Positions 1 to 14,559 of a DNA stretch of 32,000 nucleotides are shown here, in pieces; positions within the stretch are counted from its first letter, which is position 1; each line of letters begins with the position of its first letter. The stretch is from Geotalea daltonii FRC-32 (GTDB taxonomy: Bacteria > Desulfobacterota > Desulfuromonadia > Geobacterales > Geobacteraceae): NCBI RefSeq assembly GCF_000022265.1, contig NC_011979.1, positions 3,120,001 through 3,152,000 on the forward strand, read 5' to 3'. The position numbers and the translations under genes were made by a program. The notes below the pieces were generated by a model. That model was given only the letters and a program-made list of their open reading frames with translations, did not search any database and was not told the origin of the DNA.

Positions 1-201
1 TGGCAGCTCACCCTCTTCTGATGGTCCTACCAGCACATATACGCCCGTTTCCTGAAATTCATCTCTTTTCTTGATGTCGGGGAGTAATGAGCGTGGAAAA
101 ACAACGCCTCGCCCAGTCCAGTTTGACTTGTCAACAATGCGAAGCCCGTCAGGTTGGCCATAAGGCAGGAATATCTTGATCGAAAATGGTCTTTCTGGCA
201 T
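1..201 (-). CDS. GIY-YIG nuclease family protein (DUF4357-type, R-M/defence-associated); N-terminal 67 codons only, continues past the window edge
   Basis: Not in the ORF track because it runs off the edge. Minus-strand ATG at 201..199 is preceded by GGAGG (210..206, 4-nt spacer). Translation: [67 protein letters not shown]. The pattern I-x-I-F-L-x-x-G-x-P-D-G-x-R-I, then NWTG, then PR, then GVY-x-L-x-G matches from memory the N-terminus of GIY-YIG/DUF4357 proteins common in type I R-M loci. Confidence 0.55.
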
Positions 202-210
202 TTCGCCTCC

Positions 211-840
211 TTAGATCATCAACATTTCAAATGGTGCAGTTTTTATAACTTTAGTCTGATATGCAATATGGTCCTTACTAGCAGCAAAATACACCAGGGA
301 GGTTTTTGTTGCATCTTCCCTCAGAATCACCCGAACTCCCAGATCTGGCTTCGATGGCACCAGTGCTATACCCCCTAGCCCGGCGCTTTTTGCGCCTATC
401 ATCAAGCCAGGATCAATCACCATACCATGTAAGGTTTCACCAGTAGCCAGAACCCAGTTCAGCCAGTCCATCTCACTTGAACTCATGGGTCCAATGCTTG
501 CTTTTGCTTCTTCTTCAACTACCTTATCACCCTTTATAACCTGAGCAAGGGCGACCATAAGAGCATTAGTACGGACCCTCTCGTCCCGTTCTTCGCTCGA
601 CTCCTGATATGGCTTTTTCAATGTAACGCGGATGCCACTGTCCCAGGCAAGCCAGAGGATTAGACCTTTTAGCCGGGCCAATTCATCAGCGTCAGCCAAA
701 TCTTCAGATGGGTAGATAATAGAATTTGGTGCCTCGAAAAGATTCCTCGCGATACCCGAGGCAGTCTTCGCTCCACTTGTTGCGATGGTGGCAGCAACAG
801 TTCCATTCGGACTTACTGCATCAAAAGTCAAAATAGCCAC
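211..840 (-). CDS. Hypothetical protein (frame B, 3' portion of a frameshift-split gene)
   Basis: 209-codon ORF with protein-like composition. I recognise no family. Its GTG start has no SD. The stop TAA (213..211) lies 9 nt before the next gene's ATG. See feature 821..949. Confidence 0.6.
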   Translation of the reverse strand: MAILTFDAVSPNGTVAATIATSGAKTASGIARNLFEAPNSIIYPSEDLADADELARLKGLILWLAWDSGIRVTLKKPYQESSEERDERVRTNALMVALAQVIKGDKVVEEEAKASIGPMSSSEMDWLNWVLATGETLHGMVIDPGLMIGAKSAGLGGIALVPSKPDLGVRVILREDATKTSLVYFAASKDHIAYQTKVIKTAPFEMLMI

Positions 841-949
841 CGGACGTCAAAAGAATCCTTTCTCGATAAAACGGCATGCCGAACTGCTTCTGCATCCATT
901 CACGACGGACCCAATCTTCGACTTCTAATTGCACCCTTGTGTCAGCCAC
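821..949 (-). CDS. 5' portion (frame A, 42 codons) of the same gene as 211..840, separated from it by one extra T in a T4 run (823..826)
   Basis: GTG at 949..947 sits 6 nt downstream of a perfect GGAGG (960..956). Translation: VADTRVQLEVEDWVRREWMQKQFGMPFYRERILLTSGGYFDF, then TGA at 823..821. Removing one T from GAC-TTT-TGA-T joins it in frame to ...DAVSPNGTVAATI... of the 209-aa ORF. Confidence 0.4.
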   Translation of the reverse strand: MADTRVQLEVEDWVRREWMQKQFGMPFYRERILLTSGGYFDF

Positions 950-965
950 TCACAACCTCCACATT

Positions 966-2027
966 TTATGTCGTAAGCTCCGTCAGCAATGCTTCAAGCT
1001 TTGCTGGCTCCTGCATGATGGTTAATGTCAGATTTCTGATAATATTATTTGCTTCAGGGGGATTTTCGTCAGCAATTTTTAGCTGCAGCTCCTGCAGCTC
1101 AGAACCAATATCAACAGTTGTTGCTTGAATTGAGCCTCTACGTATCTGTCCTCGAAGACTGTTTTTATAAGAACGTGTTTGCATTTTGAATTCAGATGTC
1201 CAGCGACTGGAAAGGTTGATCAACCGATCGAGCCTCTTAACTCGTTCAGTGTGCTCAACTGCCGTTGGCATTATCTTAATCTGCGTCATCTGGTGACGTG
1301 GCTCAAAACATCCATGGGCTGAACGGAACACCGGGTGAAACCATTCATCAAACGCATTCCCTGCATTATCCCAAACGGGTTTTTCTCCTTTATTTGCTCG
1401 TTTATTACAATCATGGCAAATGGGGATAAGATTGTGTGATGCTGTAGATAGCCCCGGGAAGTGTTTCTTCGCAATCCAGTGGTCTACTTCTGGAGATACG
1501 AATGGACCATCGCACAATATGCATGATCTTTCACCATGTTCAGCTTTAAATGCATCAGCAAACGATTGCCTGTTAACACCTCCTGCTGCAACAGGATCTC
1601 CATTTTGATCAAAAGGTACGCCCTCCCCTAGCCCTTTATTGTAAAACTCTATCAAAAGCTCTTTAACTGCGTTCCAACCATCATCACTACAAACCGGTTT
1701 AATTGGCCAAGCTGGAGGAGGATTCTGAAACTGATTTGCCGTATTGTTACTCGCATCCAACCAACAAACTAAGCTGTTTTTTTCCGTCACCGACAGAGCC
1801 GCGATTGTTATTGCTCTGGAAAGCAAAGTCTTTTCTTTATGTTCTTTATTAAGAAATGCGACCAACCAATCACCAACAATAGGGCTTGCATGCAAGGCAC
1901 GCAAATTAGCTGCAGTGACATCCGCTGCAACACGAGTTGCCTCGCACAACCAAAGGATGAGACTTGTTTGAAGAGAATGACAAGCGTCAAGTGCTGGCTG
2001 GCAAACGAGAGTAATCGTTCTAAGCAT
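966..2027 (-). CDS. HNH endonuclease, Septu PtuB-like (TIGR02646-like HNH core with extra N- and C-terminal regions)
   Basis: HNH motif: CILCDGPFVSPEVDHWIAKKHFPGLSTASHNLIPICHDCNKRANKGEK (CxxC...DH...N...CxxCNxxK). The start ATG overlaps the upstream ATPase stop by 8 nt (ATGCTTAG, 2020..2027). An SD-like GAGAGGA lies upstream. Confidence 0.75.
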   Translation of the reverse strand: MLRTITLVCQPALDACHSLQTSLILWLCEATRVAADVTAANLRALHASPIVGDWLVAFLNKEHKEKTLLSRAITIAALSVTEKNSLVCWLDASNNTANQFQNPPPAWPIKPVCSDDGWNAVKELLIEFYNKGLGEGVPFDQNGDPVAAGGVNRQSFADAFKAEHGERSCILCDGPFVSPEVDHWIAKKHFPGLSTASHNLIPICHDCNKRANKGEKPVWDNAGNAFDEWFHPVFRSAHGCFEPRHQMTQIKIMPTAVEHTERVKRLDRLINLSSRWTSEFKMQTRSYKNSLRGQIRRGSIQATTVDIGSELQELQLKIADENPPEANNIIRNLTLTIMQEPAKLEALLTELTT

Positions 2028-3744
2028 TGCGTTTCCTCTCGTTCAGCAGTGTCCTCAATTCAGTACGGTAAAAGCCAGGGCCAACTTTCGAAATAAAGGT
2101 TTCAAGCTCTTCGGTCGTCATTGCTGCCCATTCCTTATTGTCCAACCATTCTTGAGCGCGTTTTCCCACACTATCAGGTGAATCAAATATCCGCATCATA
2201 ACTTCACCTGGATCGGCACCAAAAGTGGGTGAACTAAGAGTAATACGCTGCACATTGTAATCCTGCTTTTCAAGTAAAATGATTTCTTCACTAAACACGT
2301 CGGTCAAAACAATTGCAGAATGAGTGGAAATCAGCACATCATTGGCGGTATTGCCTATGGCTTCGTCGATTATGTCAACGATTTCACGCTTCCACTTGTC
2401 ATTAAAATGCGTTTCCGGCTCGTCAAGCAACAATAGAGCATCCTGTTGCCCATCCAGTAGATGAAACAGCGCCATGCGTCCCAGCACCATCTGCTCGCCA
2501 TCCGAGAGTTCTTCGTAGCGCAGCACGCCTATGTCCTGTCCATCATTATCGGTGCCTGGTTCCGGCACAGGCCGGATTCGAAGGCGCAAGAGTACATCGT
2601 CGAACAAGCCAGACTGATTCAGCTCCAGCAGGCGAGTGAATAACTCGAAAGGCGTAACATCTGCACCGCCAAGCAGGGCCAACAGCGCTTCCCCTTGGGT
2701 CGCGCAGGTGACAAGGGCATCGGTCGCAACGCGTGTGGCCAGCTCCTGCGCACTGAAGGTGCCTTTCAGGTCAAATAACAGAGTACGACGGGTTTCTATA
2801 GGATGAGGTTCCGCAATAACCTCCCCGGCGCACAGCCACCAGTCATGGGCCGTCTCGCACAATTTTCGATCCCAGCTGTTTGCTTGTAAATGGCTGCGAA
2901 ACCCCACCGAGACCAGATGGTGCCAACTTCCTCGTTCCAGCAAGTTTTGTAACGCTGCATCTTGTTGGGCGCTCCCTTTAAGTGCGTGAGGCAATGCCAC
3001 CGCCAGAAGTGCACACTTGAGCAACGTGGCATCAAGCAGAATTGGACGGCGAAAGGAATCAACCTCTCTGGCAGCCGTTTCCCTATCAGATCGCTCTATG
3101 CCGCCCGTCTCCTTCCGAGCTGCTTCTATCGCTAACTCTTGAGCTTTTGTCCAGCCAGCAGGCCGTTCATCAGCAAGGCTCTCTTCCATGTCCTCCAGCA
3201 AGCCTTGCGCATCCTGGTTACGGTTCCATACGGAAAGCCAAGGACGCAACTCTCCCGTGGTATAAGCTAATACAGCCGAGGGAAGTGCTATGAGCGGCGG
3301 CGTAGTATTACGCAAAGGCCAATGTCCTGGCTTAATTAAAGCGGAAAAACCCGGAACACTAGGCATTCCTTCAAGCTCTAAATGCTCAACGCATGTTTCA
3401 AATACTTCTTGACCGTTCTGATCATCGAAGACGAAAGATTCGTGGAGCCATAGGCTCGCCTTGCTTCTAGTACCGGGGCAGTGTAACAAAAGGGTGCGGT
3501 GGGTTTTTGAACCCCGTATCCCCAGCTCATATATCAAGCTGACTGGGAAAGGCGGCACTCGTAGATCGGACAGCGCCAAAAACACCTCGGCAACAGCGCG
3601 AAGCAGGTTAGATTTTCCGCTACCATTGAGACCTACCACAAAACGAATAGCACAATTACGCCCGAGAGGTGAGCCGCTGGCAAAGCAGACGTTTATGTCC
3701 GAGATTGGCGGATAATTTTGGAGATGCAGATAGCGTAGGCGCAT
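2020..3744 (-). CDS. ABC/SMC-type AAA ATPase (AAA_21/23-like), Septu PtuA-like, restriction-system-associated
   Basis: Motifs: Walker A GLNGSGKSNLL; ABC signature LSDGEQ; Walker B ALLLLDEPETH; H-loop LISTHS. About 330 aa are inserted between Walker A and the signature. The ATG (3744..3742) shares 1 nt with the hsdS stop TAA (3746..3744). Confidence 0.8.
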   Translation of the reverse strand: MRLRYLHLQNYPPISDINVCFASGSPLGRNCAIRFVVGLNGSGKSNLLRAVAEVFLALSDLRVPPFPVSLIYELGIRGSKTHRTLLLHCPGTRSKASLWLHESFVFDDQNGQEVFETCVEHLELEGMPSVPGFSALIKPGHWPLRNTTPPLIALPSAVLAYTTGELRPWLSVWNRNQDAQGLLEDMEESLADERPAGWTKAQELAIEAARKETGGIERSDRETAAREVDSFRRPILLDATLLKCALLAVALPHALKGSAQQDAALQNLLERGSWHHLVSVGFRSHLQANSWDRKLCETAHDWWLCAGEVIAEPHPIETRRTLLFDLKGTFSAQELATRVATDALVTCATQGEALLALLGGADVTPFELFTRLLELNQSGLFDDVLLRLRIRPVPEPGTDNDGQDIGVLRYEELSDGEQMVLGRMALFHLLDGQQDALLLLDEPETHFNDKWKREIVDIIDEAIGNTANDVLISTHSAIVLTDVFSEEIILLEKQDYNVQRITLSSPTFGADPGEVMMRIFDSPDSVGKRAQEWLDNKEWAAMTTEELETFISKVGPGFYRTELRTLLNERKRNA

Positions 3745-5678
3745 TACACCTCCTCCAATTGTACTTGATCTACACTCACACCTAGACGTTCGGCAATGTC
3801 GTAAACCAGATCATCCAGGTTGCTGTAGTGCTTACCTCGGTCAACTACTAAATGAGTGCAGTCTTTGTCATTATCATCACGAAGTTCCGTCACCTGGAAC
3901 ATTCCACCGGCACCGGCATGCTCTGAGGTTTCGTAATCTACCCCAACTGTGAAATAGTACGAGGTCATACCTGATGATAATGCCTTACGTAAGGTAGCGA
4001 CATCGGCCAGACGTGTGTACTCCGCTTCACGCAGCGGGCGGAATGCTTTGAGGTATTCGCGCTCCCCGGATTCAAGATTTTGCTTAGGCAGAGTAACTTT
4101 GGCAATTAGGCCCAGAGCGGATAGCTGACTCAAAGTACGGCGGATACGATTATTTAAGGCGGGTCCAAAATTTTGCAGGCGCTCCATCACTTCATCGTCA
4201 TCGCAAAAATGAGTGAACTCGTCAGGGTCCTCGACCAGAAGTGGCAGTTGATCGTTTTGCTCATAATAAGCTTTAAAGGTGGACAAAACCTGGCGCTGGA
4301 ACTCGCTCAATTCGCCCAATAGCCAATGGCGGGCTGAGCGTTCTGAATCCACGTCTGGAGGTAGGCTAGGCTTAGGTTCAGCGGCGGGGCTGCGGGTTTT
4401 TGCACCGCGAGCGTTTAGCAACTGATCGCGACATATTGTGGCTGTGGTAATCTCTGAGGCATGCATCCCCCGCCACTGAGCTGTCAATTCACCCGAAAAT
4501 GCTTCTCCCACCACAGCGCGTATAACTTCATCGATCTTGCTTGCAGATTTCACAATTTCGCTTGTCCAGGCGCGAACTTGCTTGATTTGAACTGCGAACG
4601 CTTCTTGGATTTCCAGGGGAGGAACCGGAATTTTTATGGATTGGATGTTCGGAGCATTTATGTTTGGCTGTGCTACACTGCGAACAGCCTTCTTCAGCAT
4701 CTGCTGAACGTACGGTGTTGCGAAAAGCGCGCGAACATACTCAGGCTGGACTGAATCAGCTAATCCGAACTCGATCAGATAAGCTCCCGCCACACACCGC
4801 CCCTCCTGTCCATCAAACAGTGCAAACGGCCCAATAGTACCACTCCGACTGACGACCAATGTTCCGGGCTTTAATGCGTGCTCTTGGATTTGTCCTTCCG
4901 TAAGAGCTAATTTTGGTGCTTCCCACCACCGGATTGTTCCATCATTGTTCATATCCGTCGTCCGAAGGATATGTATGCCCGAGTCACTATACTGCTGGTC
5001 CGGAAAACGTGGACCGTATTTGCTATAAGTGGTGTGCTTACCAAACGGTTCCATAGGCCAGGCGGAAGAAGCCCCAGCGATACCAAAGTGCTGCTCAAAA
5101 AGTGCCTTGGCAAGCTCAGCTGAAAGTTTAAGTACCTGTTCCTTCTGACTTCTTAAATCCTGTGCCTGCCGCAGCACATCAATAATGCGGTGCTGTTCGG
5201 GGAGAGTGGGGAGAGATAGTTTGAACGAAGCAATCGCCTTGCTCTCTATTCCAGCCTGACTGACCCACCGCTTGGCCCGAGTCTTGGAGTAACCTATCGC
5301 CCATAGTTGGTGTAGATAAAAGGCTAAATACTCAGGCGTTACCAATTCGGGATGCGGGCGAAGACGCGTCATATGATTGGAAAAGACGTATTCGCCTTCC
5401 TGATTAAACACTGCAGTCTTGCCTACCCACTCTTCACTGTTGGTGTTGTTGAAGACGACATCGCCCATCATCAACTTGTATCGTGCTGTCTCCTTGGCAC
5501 TGGCCGATATGTGCTTGATGCCTTCGAGCGTTATTTTTCCGTCTGGAGTGACATTGTGAGTGCGAATCTGCGGGGTTGTGCCGTCATCTTCTTCGCCAGG
5601 TTTTTGCGCAAATCCTGGCTGCAGATCAAGTAAGACATTTCCAACTGTCGCAACTCTCCAGCTTTCCGGCAACCTCAT
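3744..5678 (-). CDS. hsdS: Type I restriction-modification specificity subunit HsdS with a 234-aa C-terminal extension
   Basis: Two target-recognition domains are separated by conserved helices (LPTLPEQHRIIDVL..., PVPPLEIQEAFAVQIKQV...GELTAQWR). The ORF then continues in frame for residues 411-644. The start overlaps the hsdM stop (ATGA, 5675..5678). Confidence 0.9.
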   Translation of the reverse strand: MRLPESWRVATVGNVLLDLQPGFAQKPGEEDDGTTPQIRTHNVTPDGKITLEGIKHISASAKETARYKLMMGDVVFNNTNSEEWVGKTAVFNQEGEYVFSNHMTRLRPHPELVTPEYLAFYLHQLWAIGYSKTRAKRWVSQAGIESKAIASFKLSLPTLPEQHRIIDVLRQAQDLRSQKEQVLKLSAELAKALFEQHFGIAGASSAWPMEPFGKHTTYSKYGPRFPDQQYSDSGIHILRTTDMNNDGTIRWWEAPKLALTEGQIQEHALKPGTLVVSRSGTIGPFALFDGQEGRCVAGAYLIEFGLADSVQPEYVRALFATPYVQQMLKKAVRSVAQPNINAPNIQSIKIPVPPLEIQEAFAVQIKQVRAWTSEIVKSASKIDEVIRAVVGEAFSGELTAQWRGMHASEITTATICRDQLLNARGAKTRSPAAEPKPSLPPDVDSERSARHWLLGELSEFQRQVLSTFKAYYEQNDQLPLLVEDPDEFTHFCDDDEVMERLQNFGPALNNRIRRTLSQLSALGLIAKVTLPKQNLESGEREYLKAFRPLREAEYTRLADVATLRKALSSGMTSYYFTVGVDYETSEHAGAGGMFQVTELRDDNDKDCTHLVVDRGKHYSNLDDLVYDIAERLGVSVDQVQLEEV

Positions 5679-8131
5679 TCCCGCCCCTCCACCATCGCCA
5701 GAAGCTTGTCCAGCCCGCTAATGATCCGCTGCTCGTTGGTCTTCAGCTCACCAATTAACTGCACAACACTCTTGTCGCTTTTGAGTTGCGTAAAATCAAA
5801 CGGTTTGTACTGCCCGGCGGATAGGTTCCATTCGCGGGCTTCGATGCAGTCGGGATCGAGCAGGTCGTCTTTGAGTGCGCCTTTGTCATCGTAGAGTCCC
5901 GCTGCCAGCATCGCCTCGACGTAGGCGGGCCGCACCACGCCGTCGGCGGCGTGGGAGCCAGTCAGTTGGCCGTCTTCGGATTTCCATTCTTCATTTTGTG
6001 CCCAGGCACGCACCGGCACTACCCAGTGCTTGGTAGCTTTCAACACGCGGGTCTGGTCAACCGCCGGGCTGCGTAGCATGACATCGAAGCCGTCTAGTTT
6101 GGCGACTTCACGGGCGATGGCGGCCATTTCAGCAGCCAGATCAGCTATGGGCTCCTGCTCGGGCAGCGAGGCCATGGTTTCCGGATTAAGCGACTCATCA
6201 AAGGTCAGGGCGGTGCTCAGCGCTTCTTTGACCAGTTCCTTCCACATTGGCAAGGCCGGCCCGTCTTCCGGCTCAAAAAACCTGTGCATATCGCGTGCAG
6301 CGCGGTTGAAGTCCTGTTGCGGTACCCGTATGGCTTTCAGCCATTCGGTCTGTGCCTTCTCGGTGGTGATCGCCTTCTTGGCTGCCTTGGCTTTGGCCCA
6401 CTTCCGGCAGAGCGGTTGCAGAATCGGCGTGAAGAACCGGCAGGCTAACCCGGCCAGTGCTTGAAGTGCTGCTTCCCGTATCTGCTCTTCGGCATCCCGA
6501 GGAATGGCCGGTAGCTCGGGAAACAGCTCATGAATCCCCCAGACCTGTCCATCCCACATACTGGTATCAGGCAACTCGGCGAATGCTTCACCTGCCGGGG
6601 TGAGTTTGTCGGCTGTGTCGCGCAGCAGTGCCAGACGCCAGCGTTCAGGGTGAAAGCTGGGCTGCAGCAGGGTCTTTTCATAACGCTGCGCACCTTCCCG
6701 GCCATGACTCAGCCAGGCTTTGAATTTCTCCAGCGCATCCCACAGGTCATTACGTTGCCCCGGCTGCTCGTTTCGTTTTGCATTCAGTGAATAGCCATCT
6801 TCTTCCACTTCATAGAACCAGACGTATTCGGTTCGTGGTGCTGTTGTACCGGTGAAAGTTTGCTTGTCGTCGCGTCGGGTCTCTTTACGGAAGATAAGGA
6901 TGGAGGTCTTGACACCGGTATAGGGCTGGAACACACCACCCGGTAGCGAGATGACCCCTTCAACCACATGCTCAGTCAATAGCTCACGGCGCAGTCGCAC
7001 ATGGGCATCGGTGTTGCCGAACAACACCCCCTCGGGAATAATGACGGCACAGCGCCCGCCAACCTGCAGCAGATCGAGCATCAGCCAGAGGAAAAGCAGT
7101 TCACTCTTGTTGGTGATAGCGTCTTCCTTCTTCTTGCCCCTCTCTGCGGCACGAGGGAATATTTTGCTGTCCTTCTCCAGATCGTTGCTGTCCACCGTGC
7201 CAGTGAAGGGAGGATTGGCAAGGACAAAGTCATACGTTTCGGACTCCATCAACCTGGCAAGTTCAGGCTTGCCATCTCGTTTACTCAGGGAGTCACCTTG
7301 CAGAAGATGTGGGTCTGTCAAGTCGTGAAGTATCAGATTCATCCAACCGATGCGAGCCATGGTACGGTCATTATCAAGACCTACGAAGTTGGCACCGTGA
7401 TGAATTGCAGCATATTGCTCTGATGTTGCAGCAGCCCCGTCAGTGCGGTGGGGTGTACCGTCCCACTCCAACACAAGATTCTCCTGCGCCGAGTACTTGC
7501 GCATCAGATACTGCTGGGTACTGAAGAGAAAACCGCCGGTTCCAGCAGCTGGGTCAATCACGCGCTGGCTTGGTTCAGGATCAAGCAGCTCCACCATGAA
7601 TCGGATCAGATGACGCGGAGTACGAAACTGGCCATTCTTACCCGCCGTGGCAACTTCACTGAGCAGATACTCGAACGTGTCACCCATGATGTCCTGGGCA
7701 GCGGAGCCTTCACCCGCACGAGCGAAGAGCTGATCGACAGCGTCGATAGCATCGGATAGTACCTTGCCTTTGCTGGGGTCGAGCTGAAAATAAGCGTCTG
7801 CCATGCGGTTGTTTAGGCTGGCCAGTTCGCTCGGCTCATCGGATTCTGGTTTAAAATGTTTGTCCAGCTCTCGTAACCAAGGGAATACCACATTGATGAG
7901 ATGGCTCGGATTGGTTTTCTCCTGGCGGATGTAGCCCCATTTGCACGTCTCATTGTCTGCGTAGATGGAGGGCAGACCACGCTGCTGACGCTTGAGGTCA
8001 ATATCTTCGAGCCGCTTGAGAAACAACAGGTAGGTAATCTGCTCGACTGCGACTAAAGGGTTGGTGAGCCCGGCGGCCCAGAAACGATTCCAGAGTTCAT
8101 CAACTTTTTTCTTGATGTACGGAGCGATCAT
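5675..8131 (-). CDS. hsdM: Type I restriction-modification DNA methyltransferase subunit HsdM (N6-adenine), unusually long at 818 aa
   Basis: The N-terminus is HsdM_N-like (KKVDELWNRFWAAGL...YLLFLKRL). The AdoMet motif is VIDPAAGTGGFL and the catalytic motif is LANPPF. A C-terminal EWNLSAGQYKP motif is typical of the HsdM C-terminus. About 280 extra residues lie between the catalytic domain and that motif. Confidence 0.93.
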   Translation of the reverse strand: MIAPYIKKKVDELWNRFWAAGLTNPLVAVEQITYLLFLKRLEDIDLKRQQRGLPSIYADNETCKWGYIRQEKTNPSHLINVVFPWLRELDKHFKPESDEPSELASLNNRMADAYFQLDPSKGKVLSDAIDAVDQLFARAGEGSAAQDIMGDTFEYLLSEVATAGKNGQFRTPRHLIRFMVELLDPEPSQRVIDPAAGTGGFLFSTQQYLMRKYSAQENLVLEWDGTPHRTDGAAATSEQYAAIHHGANFVGLDNDRTMARIGWMNLILHDLTDPHLLQGDSLSKRDGKPELARLMESETYDFVLANPPFTGTVDSNDLEKDSKIFPRAAERGKKKEDAITNKSELLFLWLMLDLLQVGGRCAVIIPEGVLFGNTDAHVRLRRELLTEHVVEGVISLPGGVFQPYTGVKTSILIFRKETRRDDKQTFTGTTAPRTEYVWFYEVEEDGYSLNAKRNEQPGQRNDLWDALEKFKAWLSHGREGAQRYEKTLLQPSFHPERWRLALLRDTADKLTPAGEAFAELPDTSMWDGQVWGIHELFPELPAIPRDAEEQIREAALQALAGLACRFFTPILQPLCRKWAKAKAAKKAITTEKAQTEWLKAIRVPQQDFNRAARDMHRFFEPEDGPALPMWKELVKEALSTALTFDESLNPETMASLPEQEPIADLAAEMAAIAREVAKLDGFDVMLRSPAVDQTRVLKATKHWVVPVRAWAQNEEWKSEDGQLTGSHAADGVVRPAYVEAMLAAGLYDDKGALKDDLLDPDCIEAREWNLSAGQYKPFDFTQLKSDKSVVQLIGELKTNEQRIISGLDKLLAMVEGRE

Positions 8132-8149
8132 TCAGTTTGTCCTTTTGAG

Positions 8150-10876
8150 TTAAGCAACCTCATCCAATAGTTGATGGGTAAGGTCGATAAGTTCTTCGAT
8201 GTCTTGCGAGGGAAATAGTGATTCAACGCGGCCAACGCGCGAAAGCGGCGGCTCACTGAGCGCTGCTCTTGTGATACGGCCATGGCGGAGTACCGCTGCT
8301 TTGACGGCCCGTAGAAAGTTCAGTTGGTTAGCCCGCAGATAGCCATGCTCGGCAATAAATGCTTCAAATGCAGCATTAATGCGTTCTTCGCGGTTCGGCA
8401 GATGGGCGCCTTCACAAAGAATGTGACGGAGACAATCTGTAAGGGAGGCGGTAGGGGTTTCGAATGCTTTACGAAGAGTCTCTTCTGTTACAAACAAGTC
8501 TGCTTGGTTCAGCGTTTGGCTAATACCCTCCAGTTCCTCATCTGACAGGAATTCGCCCTGTTTGAGTTTAGCTAGCTCTGGAAGCTGCTCGGCAAGACGA
8601 TGTACCAGCGCCTCGACCTGTTCACGATAACTTTCGGCAAAGGCCCCTTCTCCAGTAGGTCCGTAAATAATCCAGCTGCGCTGTGTAATGCTATCAGGCA
8701 AGTTGATTTCTATGGTCTGCCCCGGTGTGGAAGTTCGGTAGCGCATTAATGGAGCGAATGTTGTTTGTAATGAAATTAGACGGGGCATGTCCAAGTGCTG
8801 CCAGAAACCTATTGAACAGACCCAGGCACGCTGCTCAGCAACACGCTGTACGTCGGGGATGTTATCGGCCAGACTGGTAATAGTTTCTTGAATGCGTTCT
8901 CTGATTTTCGCTTGCTCCCCGTCGTCTCCTTTAAGCCAGGCAACGGTTAGGCGTTCGCACCAAACGCAAAATTGAAGCTCATCTAAACCCGCTAAGGGTG
9001 CAAGACGCATCAATGGAGCAATTGATTTAGAGAAATGATCCAACATGCTTTGACTCGGCGCAGGCCATTGCTGCGCCAGTGCATCAAGCTCGTCCCAATG
9101 CGGGCGGACATTTATGCTTTGCCTGGGCAAGGATTGCAGCATGGTGAGCAACTCGTCGATAGCAGGTTGGGTGTCTTGTTGCTGGGCGTGTAGTAGTTGC
9201 CATTTTTCGAGCCGCAATCGAAACAGACGAACGGGCAACGGTTCGCTGGGGTGGTCAATCTCACCATCAGGTTTGAGTTTGAAGTAGGCGAAGTTTTTCC
9301 AGTGGTCTATGATTAGGAAGTCCTTCTTGATTTCCCCCGTTGCCTTGTCGGCATGTAGTCGCGTGCCGCGCCCGATCATTTGCCAGAACTTGACCTTGCT
9401 GAATACCGGCTTGGCAAAAACCAGATTCTGGATTGCAGGAATATCGACACCGGTATCAAGCATGTCGACTGAGATTGCGACTCGCGGCATACTTTTGAAT
9501 TTGAAATCATCTAGCGTTGCATCTGCCCGTTCCATGTGGCTGTCGATCATTTCAGCCATCCCTTGGCGTTGCAGCTCGGGATAGAGGCGGTTGAAACTTT
9601 CATAGAGGCGCTTTGCATGGGCGTGGCTGACTGCAAAGATGATTGACTTGTGGGGTAAACCACGTATGTCTTTACGGCTCTTATCCATGAACTCTCGCAC
9701 CATGGCGTCGTTGGTGGCTTGGTTAATGATGCTTTTTTCGATGTCACTTCCCTCGAAGTTTAGCTCGTCCAGCTCCACCCCTTGATCACGGGCCATTTGC
9801 TTCAGAGGCTCCGGCAGAGTATCACCCTGAATACCTCTAAGCTGAAAGTTGGTTTGCGCATCCAGCACACGATAGTTCACCAGGTTATTATCGGCGATGG
9901 CCTGTTCGTAGCTGTAGTAATAGCTAGGTGTACCGTCGCCACAATCGAACAACGCGAAGGTGTTGTGATCAATATAGTCGGTAGGAGTCGCAGTAAGGCC
10001 AAGCTGGATTGCATCGAAATGGTCAAATATAGCCTTATAGCGCTGATAGATGGAGCGGTGACTTTCATCGGCAATTATCAAGTCATAGTACCCTACGGAT
10101 AGGCGTGAATAGACCTGCATCATGCTGGGATAAGTGGCAAATTGGATGCGCGCACCAGAAGTCTCTCCACCTTCGATTCGAGCAAGACTCTCGTTCGGCA
10201 GATGGGATTTGAACTCTGCCATCGCCTGACGAACCAACTCTCTGCGGTCAGCAAGAAATAGAACACGTTGCACACGCTTTGCACGCAGTAATGTGTCCAC
10301 CAGTGCAATAGTAGTCCTGGTCTTACCAGTTCCGGTTGCCATCACCAACAGAAACTTGCGCTTGGCAGCATCCACACCTTCTGTTACACGGCGGATAGCT
10401 TCGTTCTGATAGTCGCGGCCGGCAATAGTCGGACTGATCGTTATGTCATGAAGCGGCTGTGCGTATTTACGCTGATGTTGGAGGCGTTCAAGGTCATCAC
10501 GGGTATAGAAACCGGCAATCTTTCTGGGAGGGTATCGATCACGATCCCAGAAATGAATTTCTTTGCCATTGGTTAGGAATATGAATGGGTCATGGCTAAA
10601 TTGGCTTTTGATTTGGTCGGCGTAATCAGCGGCCTGCCTCTTGCCGGCAAGTGCATCACGGCCAGTCCGTTTCGCTTCGACAATCGCTATTGGCTTACCG
10701 TCCCTGCCAAGCAAAGCATAGTCAGCAAAGCCGTGCTGTCCATGCCATTTCGGGTCATCCTCAGCGACACGAATTAAAAATTCTTCCACCACAGCACGCG
10801 ACTTAACACCCCAGCCAGCTCTGGCAAGCTGCTGGTCAATCATCTCTTGGCGGGTTTGGGATTCATTACGTGTCAT
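8150..10876 (-). CDS. hsdR: Type I restriction enzyme R subunit HsdR (EcoEI/type IB-like C-terminus)
   Basis: The N-terminus is SQTRQEMIDQQLARAGW, followed by a PD-(D/E)xK-like FADYALL...IAIVEAKR. Helicase motifs are MATGTGKTRT and IIADESHRS (DEAH). The C-terminal NQLNFLRAVKAAVLRHG resembles the EcoEI R C-terminal domain. It lies 18 nt upstream of hsdM. Confidence 0.93.
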   Translation of the reverse strand: MTRNESQTRQEMIDQQLARAGWGVKSRAVVEEFLIRVAEDDPKWHGQHGFADYALLGRDGKPIAIVEAKRTGRDALAGKRQAADYADQIKSQFSHDPFIFLTNGKEIHFWDRDRYPPRKIAGFYTRDDLERLQHQRKYAQPLHDITISPTIAGRDYQNEAIRRVTEGVDAAKRKFLLVMATGTGKTRTTIALVDTLLRAKRVQRVLFLADRRELVRQAMAEFKSHLPNESLARIEGGETSGARIQFATYPSMMQVYSRLSVGYYDLIIADESHRSIYQRYKAIFDHFDAIQLGLTATPTDYIDHNTFALFDCGDGTPSYYYSYEQAIADNNLVNYRVLDAQTNFQLRGIQGDTLPEPLKQMARDQGVELDELNFEGSDIEKSIINQATNDAMVREFMDKSRKDIRGLPHKSIIFAVSHAHAKRLYESFNRLYPELQRQGMAEMIDSHMERADATLDDFKFKSMPRVAISVDMLDTGVDIPAIQNLVFAKPVFSKVKFWQMIGRGTRLHADKATGEIKKDFLIIDHWKNFAYFKLKPDGEIDHPSEPLPVRLFRLRLEKWQLLHAQQQDTQPAIDELLTMLQSLPRQSINVRPHWDELDALAQQWPAPSQSMLDHFSKSIAPLMRLAPLAGLDELQFCVWCERLTVAWLKGDDGEQAKIRERIQETITSLADNIPDVQRVAEQRAWVCSIGFWQHLDMPRLISLQTTFAPLMRYRTSTPGQTIEINLPDSITQRSWIIYGPTGEGAFAESYREQVEALVHRLAEQLPELAKLKQGEFLSDEELEGISQTLNQADLFVTEETLRKAFETPTASLTDCLRHILCEGAHLPNREERINAAFEAFIAEHGYLRANQLNFLRAVKAAVLRHGRITRAALSEPPLSRVGRVESLFPSQDIEELIDLTHQLLDEVA

Positions 10877-10918: not shown

Positions 10919-11440
10919 TCATTCAACATCTATTGCCACTATGTGACGACATCCTGGATACATTGAACACGCCCAGAATAACTTCCCCGCGTGCGCCCCA
11001 TTCTTTGCCTGCCGCTTAACCATAATAGCTTCACATTTCGGACACACAGGCACAGCAACTTCAGCTTGTACAGAGGCTCGTTCAGTGACTGCTATAGGCA
11101 CAGGTTGCACAGGAGCAAGCTCGACTTTAGCCTGGCCAGGCGCAGTTGACTGAGGCGTAAGTTTAAACACCTCCGCTAGCTTTGCCCGAACCTCCTGCAC
11201 CACATATCCCTTCTTTGCCGGGAAATGAACAACTGGAATCTTCGCACCGGCCAAGGCTTGATCAAGGAAGGCATCCCGCCCTGCCCTATCCTCACGCCCA
11301 TGGGACTGGTCATCCAGTTCCACCACCCCAATTACAGCAAGATCTGCAGCCGAACAAATGACAAAGTCCACATGCTTCTGATTGATCTTGTTCATCGCTG
11401 TAGTGGCCTTGCTCTTTGACAGCCCCTTAGCAGGCTTCAC
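10919..11440 (-). CDS. DUF2726 (nuclease-related) protein with a C-terminal topoisomerase-type C4 zinc ribbon; true 5' end lies upstream (frame open to 11635) but has no canonical start
   Basis: DUF2726-like core: VDFVICSAADLAVIGVVELDDQSHGREDRAGRDAFLDQALAGAKIPVVHF. Zn ribbon: CPKCEAIMVKR...FWACSMYPGCRH. The same frame upstream reads ...VFLVIIGVLAALKAKKPSSTERLAFAAKEPLLTPAERSFFGVLEQALDGTYRVFVKVRLGDLV, a TM anchor plus the start of the domain. There is no ATG/GTG/TTG between the stop at 11638..11636 and the GTG at 11440. Confidence 0.7.
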   Translation of the reverse strand: MKPAKGLSKSKATTAMNKINQKHVDFVICSAADLAVIGVVELDDQSHGREDRAGRDAFLDQALAGAKIPVVHFPAKKGYVVQEVRAKLAEVFKLTPQSTAPGQAKVELAPVQPVPIAVTERASVQAEVAVPVCPKCEAIMVKRQAKNGAHAGKLFWACSMYPGCRHIVAIDVE

Positions 11441-11696: not shown

Positions 11697-12527
11697 CTAT
11701 CTTGACCAATCGATCAGGCGCTCTCCCGTCTTTACCCATGCATCCCCCGGCATCAATGGTGCTAACGACTCCAACACGTACTGCGCCGCAGCCCGGTGGT
11801 TCCAATTTGTCCCGGTCGTCAGCAATGGAGCCATGTCATCGAGAAAGCGCCGATCACTCAGCTTCTCGAACAGGTTCATCTCAAACTCGGCCCGTGATAC
11901 CGGATGCCCTTCGTGCTCCAGATACTTTACGAAGCATGACACCACGGCCTCTGGGCTGACGTTAAGGGCTGATGCAGCATGCCAGAGGTCGAACAAGTCT
12001 CGACCTTTCTTCCGCTGATAAAGCGCACGAAGCTTGGTTCCAAGCAGTTCATCAATCCCATAGGTAGAGATTGAAGCAGTGCCGCTGTGCCAGCGGGAGA
12101 CCATCTGGAACTGAAGTTTCTGGTAGCCTAAGAAGGTGAAGTGCTCACGGGAGTTGATCTCCACCTTCAGTCTTAGCGGCAAGCCTTCCTCAGAATCCAC
12201 CCGCCAAATCAACGTCACCCGGCCTTCAGACTGCTTCCGCTTCGGAACTCCCAGCCATATATTCAACTTTTCCTGCACCGCATCCATGATAGGCCCGATT
12301 GGACCGGCCTTAATCTGCACCAGATCAATATCCTCAGAATACCGTGCTGGCGGCAGGTGCAATTTAAATAGTGCGGTGCCGCCACGGAAGGCCAGATTTT
12401 CAGCGAGAAGCGGATGGCTGTACAGCTCAACAAGAGCCCGAGAGATTATCAAATCCTGCTCGACCTGGGAAAGCTGCGGCCATGGAGCATGGGTCCGCCA
12501 TGCGGTGATGTAGTCGAGAGGGATCAT
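11697..12527 (-). CDS. abiEii: AbiEii/AbiGii family nucleotidyltransferase toxin (type IV TA / abortive infection)
   Basis: The N-terminus is IISRALVELYSHPLLAENLAFRGGTALFKLHLPPARYSEDIDLV, typical of DUF1814/AbiEii. The start overlaps the upstream gene's stop (ATGA, 12524..12527). Confidence 0.85.
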   Translation of the reverse strand: MIPLDYITAWRTHAPWPQLSQVEQDLIISRALVELYSHPLLAENLAFRGGTALFKLHLPPARYSEDIDLVQIKAGPIGPIMDAVQEKLNIWLGVPKRKQSEGRVTLIWRVDSEEGLPLRLKVEINSREHFTFLGYQKLQFQMVSRWHSGTASISTYGIDELLGTKLRALYQRKKGRDLFDLWHAASALNVSPEAVVSCFVKYLEHEGHPVSRAEFEMNLFEKLSDRRFLDDMAPLLTTGTNWNHRAAAQYVLESLAPLMPGDAWVKTGERLIDWSR

Positions 12528-13306
12528 AGTTCCGGCTCTACCTTTTCATTCGGTAACAACCGCCAACGGGACTCTTGCCGTATATTTTTTGAAGGTTGCG
12601 ACGGAGAGAGCGGCACCGGCACCGCATCCTTTTGAGTTATATATTCTGCCAGGCCTTTAGCCAGCTCGCGCTCGCCCACCAATTCCAACAGGTAGCCCAG
12701 ACGTTGAGACCACGATATGGGAGAAAGATCAGCAATGGAGACAAGTTTTGCAGGGTCCATTTTCTCGGCCAGTTCGGACAGGACCGTAGCAACATTGTCC
12801 AATCCCCCCGCATGGTGCGGGTATCCGGCAAGATCAAAAGCGGTAACTTCCGGAGTGGAAACCCTTAGATACCCTCGGGGGGTTTTGAAATCCTGGGTAG
12901 GCATGCCAGCGACATTTTTCCGTCCGATAAAATCGACCCGAACGCCGCCGCAGGTAATTCCCGTCCTGGTGCGCGGCACTATAACTTGAAAGGATTGAGG
13001 GCGATGATGGGCAGCACCGTGATGTTCGGCAGCGGTGAGAAGTCCGGCATAATACAGCTCACCAAGATGAGACATCAGTGCCGGGATGAATTGGTTGGCG
13101 GGAAGACAGCCAAGTTTTCGATGTTCCGGGGTAACGATCACGTAGAACCCTCGAAACGGCATGGCTATTTCTCCCTTATGCCGTGCGCGGCGTAAGGCAG
13201 CACGGGTCGCGATGACGTTAGAGCCTAAAAATTGAGAGGCTTCCACGCCACTGAAGCAGTATATTCCCTGTGCGAGCAAGTGGTCAAGATACTGAGCAAT
13301 AGCCAT
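12524..13306 (-). CDS. abiEi: AbiEi family antitoxin/transcriptional regulator (type IV TA)
   Basis: It sits immediately upstream of abiEii and overlaps it. It has an N-terminal wHTH-like region and the size and layout of AbiEi. The ORF track starts at TTG 13324, but the ATG at 13306 (MAIAQYLDHLL...) is more plausible. Confidence 0.8.
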   Translation of the reverse strand: MAIAQYLDHLLAQGIYCFSGVEASQFLGSNVIATRAALRRARHKGEIAMPFRGFYVIVTPEHRKLGCLPANQFIPALMSHLGELYYAGLLTAAEHHGAAHHRPQSFQVIVPRTRTGITCGGVRVDFIGRKNVAGMPTQDFKTPRGYLRVSTPEVTAFDLAGYPHHAGGLDNVATVLSELAEKMDPAKLVSIADLSPISWSQRLGYLLELVGERELAKGLAEYITQKDAVPVPLSPSQPSKNIRQESRWRLLPNEKVEPEL

Positions 13307-13333
13307 GATGCTTAAATACAGCAAACAAACAAG

Positions 13334-13668: not shown

Positions 13669-14021
13669 TGGTGGAGGTGGCGGGAATCGAACCCGCGTCC
13701 GAAGATCGTACACGAAAGGCGTCTACATGCTTATACCAGTTTTTGTTTTAGCCCCCGAGAACTCCACTGGCCGGGATTTGTCAGGTTCGATCCTGCTTTA
13801 ATTTCGCTTCGGGACCACAGGCACTTCCCTCGGCTATCCCACTGAAATGACGATCTATCCTGCCCCATGGGAGAGGGAAGGTAGATCGTTAGCAGGTTAT
13901 TAAGCTGCTAAAGCGTAATCGTAATTATCGGCGCTTAATGCGTCCCGGATTGTTTTACGAGCCACCCGGACCTCGGCATGCAACCTTTGCTTATTACCCC
14001 CGTCGAAACCTTTACACCCCC
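13669..14021 (-). ncRNA. ssrA: tmRNA (SsrA), 353 nt, standard one-piece
   Basis: 5' end is GGGGGUGUAAAGGUUUCGACGGGGG. 3' end is ...GGACGCGGGUUCGAUUCCCGCCACCUCCACCA. The acceptor stem has the G3:U pair. The predicted tag reading frame GCC GAU AAU UAC GAU UAC GCU UUA GCA GCU UAA UAA (13932..13900) encodes ADNYDYALAA. It is adjacent to smpB. Confidence 0.95.
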
Positions 14022-14103: not shown

Positions 14104-14559
14104 TTATCTGTTCCGTTCTTTAAGCGCTACTGCCACATCGCGGCGCATATCTTTTTTCTTCATGTCCTCTCGTTTGTCATAGAGCTTCTTGCCTTTGGCC
14201 ATACCCAGCTCTACCTTTACCAGGCCGGTTTTGAAGTACAGCCGAAGAGGGACCACCGAATAGCCCTGTTCCCTGATCTTGCCGAAAAGCTTGCCTATTT
14301 CCTTTTTGTGGAGAAGCAGCTTGCGCATCCGGTCCGGATCATGATTTTCCCGGTTGCCGAAATCGTATGGAGAGATATGCAGGTTATGCAGAAATGCTTC
14401 GCCATTCTTGATCAGGGCAAAGGAATCATTGAGGTTGGCTTTGCCATTTCGCAGGGATTTAACTTCGGTTCCCTTGAGTACCATGCCAGCCTCGAATTTT
14501 TCCTCGATGAAATAATCGTGATAGGCTTTTTTATTGTTACAGATCAACTTTTCAGACAT
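14104..14559 (-). CDS. smpB: SsrA-binding protein SmpB
   Basis: Full-length match to the SmpB pattern ([28 protein letters not shown]...LLLHKKEI...VPLRLYF), with a basic C-terminal tail. It is next to ssrA. Confidence 0.97.

Follow-up and report, generated by a model that had tools for sequence, protein, structure and literature searches.

A type I restriction-modification operon with an appended Septu-like ATPase-HNH pair in Geotalea daltonii FRC-32: a probable five-gene defence cassette of wide distribution

Organisation of the locus

The subject of this study is a run of five consecutive minus-strand genes, hsdR-hsdM-hsdS-ATPase-HNH, located within a 32,000-nucleotide stretch of Geotalea daltonii FRC-32 DNA (NC_011979.1, forward-strand positions 3,120,001 to 3,152,000; hereafter the window, from the first base of which all coordinates are counted). 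The first three of these genes specify a type I restriction-modification (R-M) enzyme and the remaining two an ATPase and an HNH nuclease protein reminiscent of the Septu defence system. The list of open reading frames (ORFs) in the window placed all five at the coordinates first noted when the locus was described from its letters alone, a description referred to below as the sequence-only reading.

The hsdR gene (8150..10876) codes for a 908-residue, type IB-like restriction subunit in which a PD-ExK nuclease, a superfamily 2 (SF2) helicase and an EcoEI_R_C domain are combined, and is followed by hsdM (5675..8131), the 818-residue product of which is an N6-adenine methyltransferase with the motif NPPF at residues 306-309. 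The 644-residue product of hsdS (3744..5678) consists of two target-recognition domains (residues 1-400) plus a 244-residue C-terminal tail. The fourth gene (2020..3744) specifies a 574-residue ATPase of the ATP-binding cassette (ABC) type that is PtuA/OLD-like in character (Pfam AAA_21), and the fifth (966..2027) a 353-residue protein with a Pfam HNH domain that is PtuB-like in both its position and its core motif.

The near absence of intergenic space claimed for these genes was confirmed base by base on the minus strand. Between hsdR and hsdM there is an 18-nucleotide (nt) spacer (8132..8149) containing an AAGGA ribosome-binding site; hsdM and hsdS overlap in an ATGA (5675..5678); the hsdS stop and the ATPase start share one base of a TAATG (3742..3746); and the ATPase and HNH genes overlap by the 8 nt ATGCTTAG (2020..2027). 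In every case a Shine-Dalgarno-like purine run lying within the upstream gene, of which GGAGGAGGTGTAATG serves as an example, precedes the downstream start. A scan for internal promoters and terminators returned consensus matches at the level of shuffled sequence (9 against 9.2±3.3, and 16 against 12.3±3.9, respectively), none of which fell at a junction, a result in keeping with the original statement that no terminator separates the genes.

The proportion of G+C at third codon positions (GC3) proved to be strongly uneven along the operon: it was highest in hsdM (0.63), intermediate in hsdR (0.52), hsdS and the ATPase gene (both 0.50), and lowest in the HNH gene (0.36). Such a mosaic suggests, on compositional grounds, that the operon may consist of modules of differing origin or age, and fits a modular assembly.

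Conservation of the five-gene cassette

Using a 17-member alignment of the ATPase, 80 loci were gathered from a one-genome-per-species collection and the window proteins mapped onto them by tblastn, the upstream counts being drawn from the 48 of them in which the ATPase was matched over its full length and upstream sequence amounted to 7.5 kb or more. The HsdM core was located upstream of the ATPase in 47 of these 48 loci, a detectable HsdM extension in 44, the HsdS core in 43 and HsdR in 40, and the HNH protein was encoded downstream of the ATPase in all 59 loci with at least 1.5 kb of sequence on that side; the genes of the 48 loci were in all cases colinear and on the same strand. The ATPase family is 63-77% identical in Pseudomonas, Achromobacter, Nitrosomonas, Thiobacillus and Acidobacteria, and homologues spanning 30-77% identity nearly always sit straight after an over-long hsdS and before an HNH gene. 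Loss of this adjacency to hsdS among homologues of the ATPase, named in the sequence-only reading as an outcome that would count against it, was looked for, and the adjacency was found to be conserved. The cassette occurs in at least eight phyla, namely Proteobacteria, Acidobacteria, Deinococcales, Cyanobacteria (Nostoc), Chloroflexi (Ktedonobacter), Verrucomicrobia, Planctomycetes and Firmicutes (Syntrophomonas).

The reverse experiment, in which the HsdM extension served as the probe among metagenome contigs and 43 loci with at least 4.6 kb of flanking sequence were scored, placed the ATPase downstream in 42 and the HNH protein in all 43. The association is near-obligate in both directions, from ATPase-based loci and from HsdM-extension metagenome loci, across those phyla, and bears out the earlier proposal that this is a composite system rather than two neighbouring ones: it is very probable that the five genes constitute one integrated and conserved defence cassette.

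The geometry of the junctions was conserved along with gene order. Across 72 loci the interval from the hsdS stop to the ATPase start was -1 nt in 36, -4 nt in 11 and 0 nt in 9 (56 of the 72 in all), and it lay within ±10 nt in 68; the overlap of the ATPase and HNH genes was -8 nt in most of the loci measured, across phyla. Because this geometry recurs in dozens of independent loci, it represents more than chance; it couples translation of the ATPase and HNH genes to that of the R-M genes. By way of contrast, tblastn of the ORFs flanking the cassette in the window (the ORF at 211-840, DUF2726, AbiEii and AbiEi) against the 80 loci gave no match, and since no flanking gene is conserved beside the cassette, the unit is taken to be exactly five genes.

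Independent gene calls in Pseudomonas aeruginosa reproduced the cassette as proteins of 907, 820, 622, 600 and ~367 residues beside pheT-ihfA-merR on at least 24 contigs, and it was also found in Achromobacter, Citrobacter, Serratia and a plasmid from Pantoea, the last being the one plasmid copy recovered by a protein-level search of PLSDB. DNA nearly identical to the Geotalea operon was absent from complete Escherichia coli genomes and from PLSDB, and near and distant searches of E. coli genomes with the Citrobacter copy returned nothing. A protein-level search of a phage collection gave no match and hence no sign of a phage-borne cassette. In three P. aeruginosa loci (L161-L163, 13581-19803) the cassette adjoins an IS3-type transposase and a SymE-like toxin gene, with a giant gene for a 2098-residue protein-kinase/DUF4011/AAA_11-AAA_12 helicase also present, an assemblage that amounts to a defence hotspot.

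The type I core

Each of the three subunits expected of a type I enzyme was recognisable in the window: a restriction subunit with nuclease and helicase, a modification subunit with methylase motifs, and a specificity subunit with two target-recognition domains. HsdR matched Pfam ResIII (1e-36), EcoEI_R_C (2e-25), HSDR_N and Helicase_C, together with the PADLOC model REase_I (1e-145), and its nuclease residues D52, E67 and K69 and the Walker A motif GTGKT were retained in 46-47 of 47 homologues. Its score against the HsdR equivalog of the type IB enzyme EcoAI (NF046051) was 276 bits, as opposed to a cutoff of 550; because EcoEI_R_C is present and yet that cutoff is missed, HsdR is best described as IB-like and as a member of a distinct subfamily. 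HsdM matched HsdM_N (5e-14) and N6_Mtase (3e-51), and both NPPF and the S-adenosylmethionine (SAM) motif (D193/G197) were conserved in 52-56 of 56 homologues. Two Pfam Methylase_S stretches were found in HsdS, ending near residue 398 of 644, and the PADLOC model Specificity_I (2e-64) covered residues 141-398.

Judged by its predicted catalytic sites, the R-M enzyme of the cassette is enzymatically complete and type IB-like. As the catalytic residues of HsdR are conserved, the HNH protein is to be regarded as an addition to the type I enzyme and not as a substitute for a degenerate HsdR.

Extra domains on HsdS and HsdM

Both HsdS and HsdM are considerably longer than their recognisable domains require. 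Pfam coverage of HsdM is confined to residues 6-473 of 818, which makes the protein ~330 residues longer than usual type I modification subunits, and throughout the family HsdS is over-long (504-746 residues) and most HsdM proteins measure 790-866 residues. For the HsdS tail (residues 401-644) and the C-terminal HsdM region (residues 476-818), the homologues found were all parts of proteins whose annotation is type I S or M subunit. When 1.84 billion representative proteins were searched with a profile of the tail, 75 clusters were recovered at E ≤ 1e-30 and 940 at E ≤ 1e-10, and among the best 150 matches the tail began, without exception, at around residue 310-340 of a 500-700-residue protein or of a fragment. 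These domains were found only in the context of the ATPase and HNH genes, so that the view of them as part of the same package was upheld.

An AlphaFold2 model of the HsdS tail (predicted local distance difference test score, pLDDT, 84.5) showed a winged-helix domain and a small alpha/beta domain in addition to a helix and a disordered linker. The winged helix (4029..4346, minus strand; HsdS residues ~445-550) contains the motifs LSEFQRQV and RRTLSQLSALGLIAKV, and Foldseek aligned it with the winged helices of Orc1/Cdc6, TFIIE and PadR at a probability of ~1.0, the accompanying E-values being modest (3e-3 and weaker). The small alpha/beta domain modelled at the extreme C-terminus (3750..3956, minus strand; residues ~575-643) is optional: 38 of 72 loci have a long tail that includes it and 34 a short one that does not, a difference which showed no correlation with the length of either the ATPase or the HNH protein. 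The family-specific C-terminal region of HsdM (5678..6706, minus strand) was modelled by AlphaFold2 (pLDDT 80.3) as a long helical bundle with beta-hairpins, positioned ahead of the canonical 'NLSAGQY' motif and a terminal helix; a search of the Protein Data Bank (PDB) with this fold gave nothing better than E ≈ 2.

Co-variation of the parts was assessed from matrices of pairwise distances over the 23 loci that have all of them. Mean distances of 0.18-0.19 were obtained for HsdR and the HsdM core, as against 0.38-0.49 for the HsdM extension, the HsdS tail, the ATPase and the HNH protein. On these figures the effector side evolves about twice as fast as the R/M core, as might be expected of parts that face phage triggers or inhibitors. 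Distances for the HsdS tail and the ATPase were highly correlated (r = 0.91), and remained so after controlling for HsdR and the HsdM core (partial r = 0.82); the HNH protein, the gene for which is equally adjacent, gave a partial r of 0.23. The pattern is that which a direct partner of the ATPase would be expected to produce, and it is proposed that the winged helix of HsdS may act as a docking or adaptor module for the ATPase.

The ATPase and HNH proteins

The translated 574-residue ATPase was 100% identical to Geob_2866 and contained all of the ABC motifs attributed to it, namely GLNGSGKS (Walker A, G38-S45), LSDGEQ (signature, S414-E417), LLLLDEPE (Walker B, D441-E442) and STHS (H-loop, H475). 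Residues K44, S414, G416, E417, D441, E442 and H475 were invariant in 55 of 55 homologues. Pfam assigned the protein to AAA_21 (3e-15) and also to AAA_15, and the best PADLOC model was PtuA1 (PDLC00293, 2e-29), with the best stretch at profile positions 252-403 of 527; PtuA was ranked ahead of AriA, HEC-01A, MAD3 and PDC-M01A, and matches to Rad50 and RecF models were weak. The nearest solved structures were PtuA chains from Septu and from retron type I-A (E = 6e-5), the alignment being restricted to the C-terminal 160 residues, from the signature to the C-terminus. It is this signature-to-C-terminal region of PtuA that binds PtuB in Septu (PMC12065111).

The catalytic core of the HNH protein (1383..1535, minus strand; residues 165-215) reads C169-x2-C172...D182-H183...N199...C204-x2-C207-N208. 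Across 63 homologues C169, H183 and N208 were retained in all 63, N199 in 62, C172 in 61 and D182 in 60, C204 and C207 being read in the window protein and the homologue counts covering the other core residues. The CxxC...DH...N...CxxC pattern originally given for this core was correct, but the ending 'CxxCNxxK' was slightly off, the sequence being CHDCNKRANK. Matches to Pfam HNH (3e-6) and, in PADLOC, to PDC-M01B (9e-13, 46.6 bits) and PtuB (2e-5, 22 bits) were recorded, and no sequence relative of the protein was found in the PDB.

Comparison with known defence systems

The label 'Septu-like' attached to the pair in the sequence-only reading holds for architecture, in that a gene for a PtuA-like ABC ATPase is directly followed, in one operon, by an overlapping HNH gene, but fails as a statement of membership. 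The ATPase scored 33 bits against the NCBIfam PtuA model NF041760, as opposed to a cutoff of 500, and the HNH protein gave no match to TIGR02646 at E ≤ 0.01. Nor is the pair a self-contained two-gene system, tied as it is to hsdM and hsdS in 47 of 48 loci, the single exception being an apparent remnant described below (L005). Because the curated models for PtuA, TIGR02646, TIGR04435 and the MAD proteins are not passed, the ATPase and HNH proteins are considered to represent a distinct family, Septu-like in design.

The likeness to Septu, and to retron type I-A (Septu type II; Ec78/Eco7), resides in the ABC ATPase gene with its overlapping HNH gene and in an HNH core of the CxxC...DH...N...CxxC type. 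The retron form resembles the cassette additionally in attaching the pair to a larger machine that recognises nucleic acids, although here the partner is a type I modification-specificity (M·S) core with fused adaptor domains rather than a reverse transcriptase with multicopy single-stranded DNA (msDNA).

A functional parallel is provided by PrrC, a latent, ATPase-regulated anticodon nuclease encoded within the type IC R-M operon EcoprrI, which is held by the R-M enzyme and released or activated when a phage inhibits restriction (PMC12707154); the same source remarks in general terms that some R-M systems carry accessory toxin-like genes. PrrC differs in being a single polypeptide, an ABC-like NTPase fused to an RNase, the gene for which is located between hsd genes, whereas the cassette has two separate proteins, the nuclease being of the HNH type and encoded at the operon's 3' end, and adds domains to HsdS and HsdM, and the two share no sequence relationship beyond the ABC fold. 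RloA/RloB of Campylobacter type I loci, PARIS (AriA/AriB) and the dyads of BREX also link an ATPase of the OLD/PtuA clade and a nuclease to methylation-based defence, and dyads of an OLD-ABC protein and a nuclease, including an HNH-linked variant, have been proposed as back-up effectors of BREX (PMC12839542). These, however, usually deploy a Toprim nuclease and are facultative neighbours without domains fused to R-M subunits; the partner in the cassette has an HNH domain only, and AriA models scored below PtuA.

Weak matches led to MADS (the methylation-associated defence system, mad1-8 of P. aeruginosa) being considered, since HsdM, HsdS and the ATPase resemble the HsdM-like MAD2, the HsdS-like MAD5 and the AAA/ABC ATPase MAD3, respectively. 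Scores for MAD2, MAD3 and MAD5 fell far below the curated cutoffs (132 against 720, 17.5 against 420 and 48 against 400 bits). MAD6-8, which are mandatory in the MADS detection model (10.1101/2023.03.30.534895), had no counterparts in the cassette, the sole match being one of mad8 to HsdR at E = 0.006, and the cassette differs further in possessing a classical HsdR. TIGR04435, the 'restriction system-associated AAA family ATPase', was the best NCBIfam match of the ATPase (4e-32); its name indicates that a related ATPase had already caught the attention of curators as a neighbour of restriction systems, but the match was limited to the C-terminal ~150 residues and scored 111.6 bits against a cutoff of 300. 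Membership of MADS and of TIGR04435 was ruled out by these curated cutoffs. A literature search found no publication for TIGR04435, and a full-text search yielded no account of the cassette or of Geob_2865-2869, a passing mention in Krishnan et al. 2020 (NAR 48:10045) not being excluded.

Variant architectures

Four-gene M-S-ATPase-HNH forms were recorded in six of the 48 loci (L036, L037 and L045 from Pseudomonas, L041 from Nostoc, and L054 and L060), with no hsdR within ~21 kb, though an hsdR could lie elsewhere in the genome; in the Pseudomonas and Nostoc examples HsdM was shorter, at 569-627 residues. Because such hsdR-less forms exist, it is the M·S core, and not HsdR, that is the constant partner of the ATPase and HNH proteins. 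One further locus, from a metagenome-assembled genome of the Acidobacteriaceae (L005:9294-12887), lacks both an hsdM and an hsdS core ahead of the pair: its ATPase and HNH genes are preceded by just a 236-residue ORF that aligns with the HsdS tail. This locus, an apparent remnant, holds the sole stand-alone pair among the 48 with full upstream context.

The most distant loci (L067-L080, for example L070:1438-11480) have a six-gene variant. Here hsdR carries an N-terminal DUF4145, hsdM (485 residues) and hsdS (371 residues) are of ordinary length, and hsdS is followed by genes for a protein of ~630 residues, termed X, a 440-residue ATPase and a 297-residue, weakly TIGR02646-like HNH protein, all of the junctions being overlapping; the ATPase scored 115 bits against TIGR04435, again below the cutoff. 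In L070 a TcmP-like gene comes next. Protein X displays the methyltransferase-like motifs DPCVGSG and FDPPL, and its C-terminal ~85 residues aligned with the HsdS winged helix in hhalign (E = 5e-5, probability 68%), the two sharing the motifs 'LSEFQ...Y' and 'TL..L..LGLI'. Pairwise BLAST of X with the HsdS and HsdM tails was not significant. The notion that X is a free-standing version of both tails was rejected, its match to the HsdM extension being limited to the generic methylase core (probability 2%). Should the winged-helix homology be real, this domain would be the module encoded directly upstream of the ATPase gene in both architectures, carried on HsdS in one and on a methyltransferase-like protein in the other, a placement that would fit an adaptor for the ATPase.

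Genomic surroundings in G. daltonii

Upstream of the cassette in the window, a transfer-messenger RNA (tmRNA) gene (13669-14021, minus strand; tag peptide ADNYDYALAA) adjoins smpB (14104-14559, minus strand). The genes to the left of it, AbiEi/AbiEii, DUF2726 and the five-gene cassette, are of defence type, and those to the right (panBC, pfk, glk and malic enzyme) are housekeeping genes. Because defence and housekeeping genes are divided in this way by tmRNA and smpB, the cassette is taken to be part of a genomic island that was inserted at ssrA. The window showed no integrase. The AbiEi antitoxin and the AbiEii nucleotidyltransferase toxin form a complete type IV toxin-antitoxin pair of the abortive-infection kind, specified by overlapping genes (11697-13324, minus strand).

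The gene between that pair and the cassette (10919-11440, minus strand) stops 42 nt short of the hsdR start; its product is a DUF2726 protein that has a C4 zinc ribbon of the topoisomerase type. Of the sigma-70-like sites in the region the best (11639-11610), which matches at 10 of 12 positions and has an extended -10 TG, is upstream of the DUF2726 gene, and in G. daltonii this gene may be co-transcribed with the cassette; it was not conserved beside the cassette in other loci. On the other side, in the interval 211-949 (minus strand), a frame of 42 codons begins 17 nt past the HNH stop at a GTG (949) served by a GGAGG ribosome-binding site. By way of a frameshift near 840 it appears to continue into the ORF at 211-840, and looks like either a frameshifted gene or a sequencing error. 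No Pfam domain matched this frame, and none of the other loci has a homologue of it next to the cassette. A partial ORF (1-201, minus strand), likewise without a Pfam match, starts 9 nt after the preceding stop and runs off the left edge of the window.

Possible mode of action

The organisation of the cassette would be explicable if the ATPase and HNH proteins formed a Septu-type (PtuAB-like) complex that docked on M2S1, the complex of two HsdM and one HsdS, via the winged-helix tail of HsdS, with the HsdM insertion possibly assisting. The R-M core would then serve as both platform and sensor, keeping the ATPase-HNH effector latent until either blocked restriction or a perturbed M·S core, as might result from DNA-mimic anti-restriction proteins, switched the state of the ATPase, which would in turn free or activate the HNH protein as a back-up, abortive-type effector; the substrate of the HNH protein could be DNA or tRNA. 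Such a guarded back-up is favoured because PrrC and the retron-Septu systems set precedents for it, because the HsdR nuclease is intact and because the effector side evolves fast; it is nevertheless put forward tentatively, with doubt slightly the stronger. Regarding the retron precedent, three reports (PMC12673091, PMC12475279, PMC13096335) describe the sequestration of PtuAB by retrons and the cleavage of tRNA-Tyr by PtuAB.

A number of observations weigh against a guarded back-up docked on the HsdS tail. The HsdM extension co-varied weakly with the ATPase (partial r ≈ 0.3), correlations of pairwise distances lack phylogenetic independence, and the co-variation of tail and ATPase may partly reflect linkage, adjacent segments sharing recombination blocks. 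Winged helices usually bind DNA, and that of HsdS might touch DNA rather than the ATPase. The homology between the HsdS winged helix and the C-terminus of protein X is, at the hhalign probability given, suggestive only, and the four-gene forms would leave a guard with less to guard and are a better fit to a direct role in restriction.

These hsdR-less cassettes are indeed the best support for an alternative in which the pair constitutes a second restriction arm, recruited by M2S1 to unmethylated sites in order to cut invading DNA beside, or instead of, HsdR. It would suit this alternative that the pair is obligately partnered by the M·S core and not by HsdR, that the extra domains sit on the two subunits which read sequence and methylation state, and that HNH domains are common DNA-cleaving modules of restriction enzymes (PMC12707154). 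However, the PD-ExK site of HsdR is intact and strongly conserved in 40 of the 48 loci, so that a second DNA nuclease looks redundant; the hsdR of the four-gene genomes may lie outside the ~21 kb inspected; and those PtuAB modules that have been characterised are sequestered toxins, for which two reports (PMC13096335, PMC12673091) describe the cleavage of tRNA-Tyr rather than site-directed cutting of DNA. A second arm of this sort, though a serious rival of the guarded back-up and the main one, is regarded as rather unlikely, and a similar reserve applies to its fuller formulation, in which M2S1 would act as a programmable platform reading sequence and methylation and driving two nuclease arms, one being HsdR and the other ATPase/HNH attached through the winged helix of HsdS.

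A housekeeping or regulatory function within the R-M enzyme, whether restriction alleviation, the clearing of stalled translocating complexes or the processing of DNA ends made by HsdR, would be in keeping with a pair tethered to the core enzyme. ABC ATPases related to SMC, Rad50 and RecF are active on stalled complexes and at DNA ends, and models of Rad50 and of RecF were weakly matched. Such a function is improbable nonetheless, given that the best matches are to defence ATPases (PtuA, AriA, HEC-01A, MAD3) and not to repair proteins, that the fast evolution of the ATPase, the HNH protein and the HsdS tail is atypical of such a role, and that the hsdR-less forms speak against any function bound to HsdR translocation. 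The conservation data bear most heavily on the idea of two independent systems, with a Septu-like pair hitch-hiking at the 3' end of a type I operon and having no physical or regulatory link to it. Defence genes are indeed grouped in islands and commonly found embedded in type I loci (PMC11411939, PMC12065111), the composition of the HNH gene differs from that of the remaining operon (GC3 0.36 against 0.50-0.63), and L005 keeps the ATPase and HNH genes with a mere fragment of the HsdS tail. The near-obligate association in both directions across at least eight phyla largely refutes this idea; apart from the L005 remnant, no stand-alone pair of the family was encountered in the 48 loci with full upstream context, the extra domains of HsdS and HsdM occur only with the pair, the tail co-varies with the ATPase, and the overlapping junctions are conserved. 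Independence of the two parts is held to be very improbable indeed.

Significance

The cassette, widespread, strictly conserved and physically compact, has apparently not been described before: it is a type I R-M system with what seems to be a hard-wired effector of the Septu type. Defence-system finders probably split or miss it, because its pair is annotated merely as 'AAA family ATPase' and 'hypothetical protein', as in the record of the Pantoea plasmid. The wiring of first-line restriction to second-line effectors has been studied mainly via PrrC/EcoprrI and through loose genomic co-occurrence; in this cassette it seems to be hard-coded in the extra domains that HsdS and HsdM carry, which makes the coupling directly testable.

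After stand-alone Septu and the retrons, this would be a third independent context in which an ATPase-nuclease of the PtuAB type has been co-opted, and as such it lends weight to the view that Septu is a portable effector cartridge. Were the pair to prove a second restriction arm, the ATPase and HNH proteins would be the sole restriction subunit of the hsdR-less four-gene forms, and the cassette would represent a new class of R-M system in which Septu modules, beyond their role as abortive toxins, could be targeted by DNA sequence and methylation.

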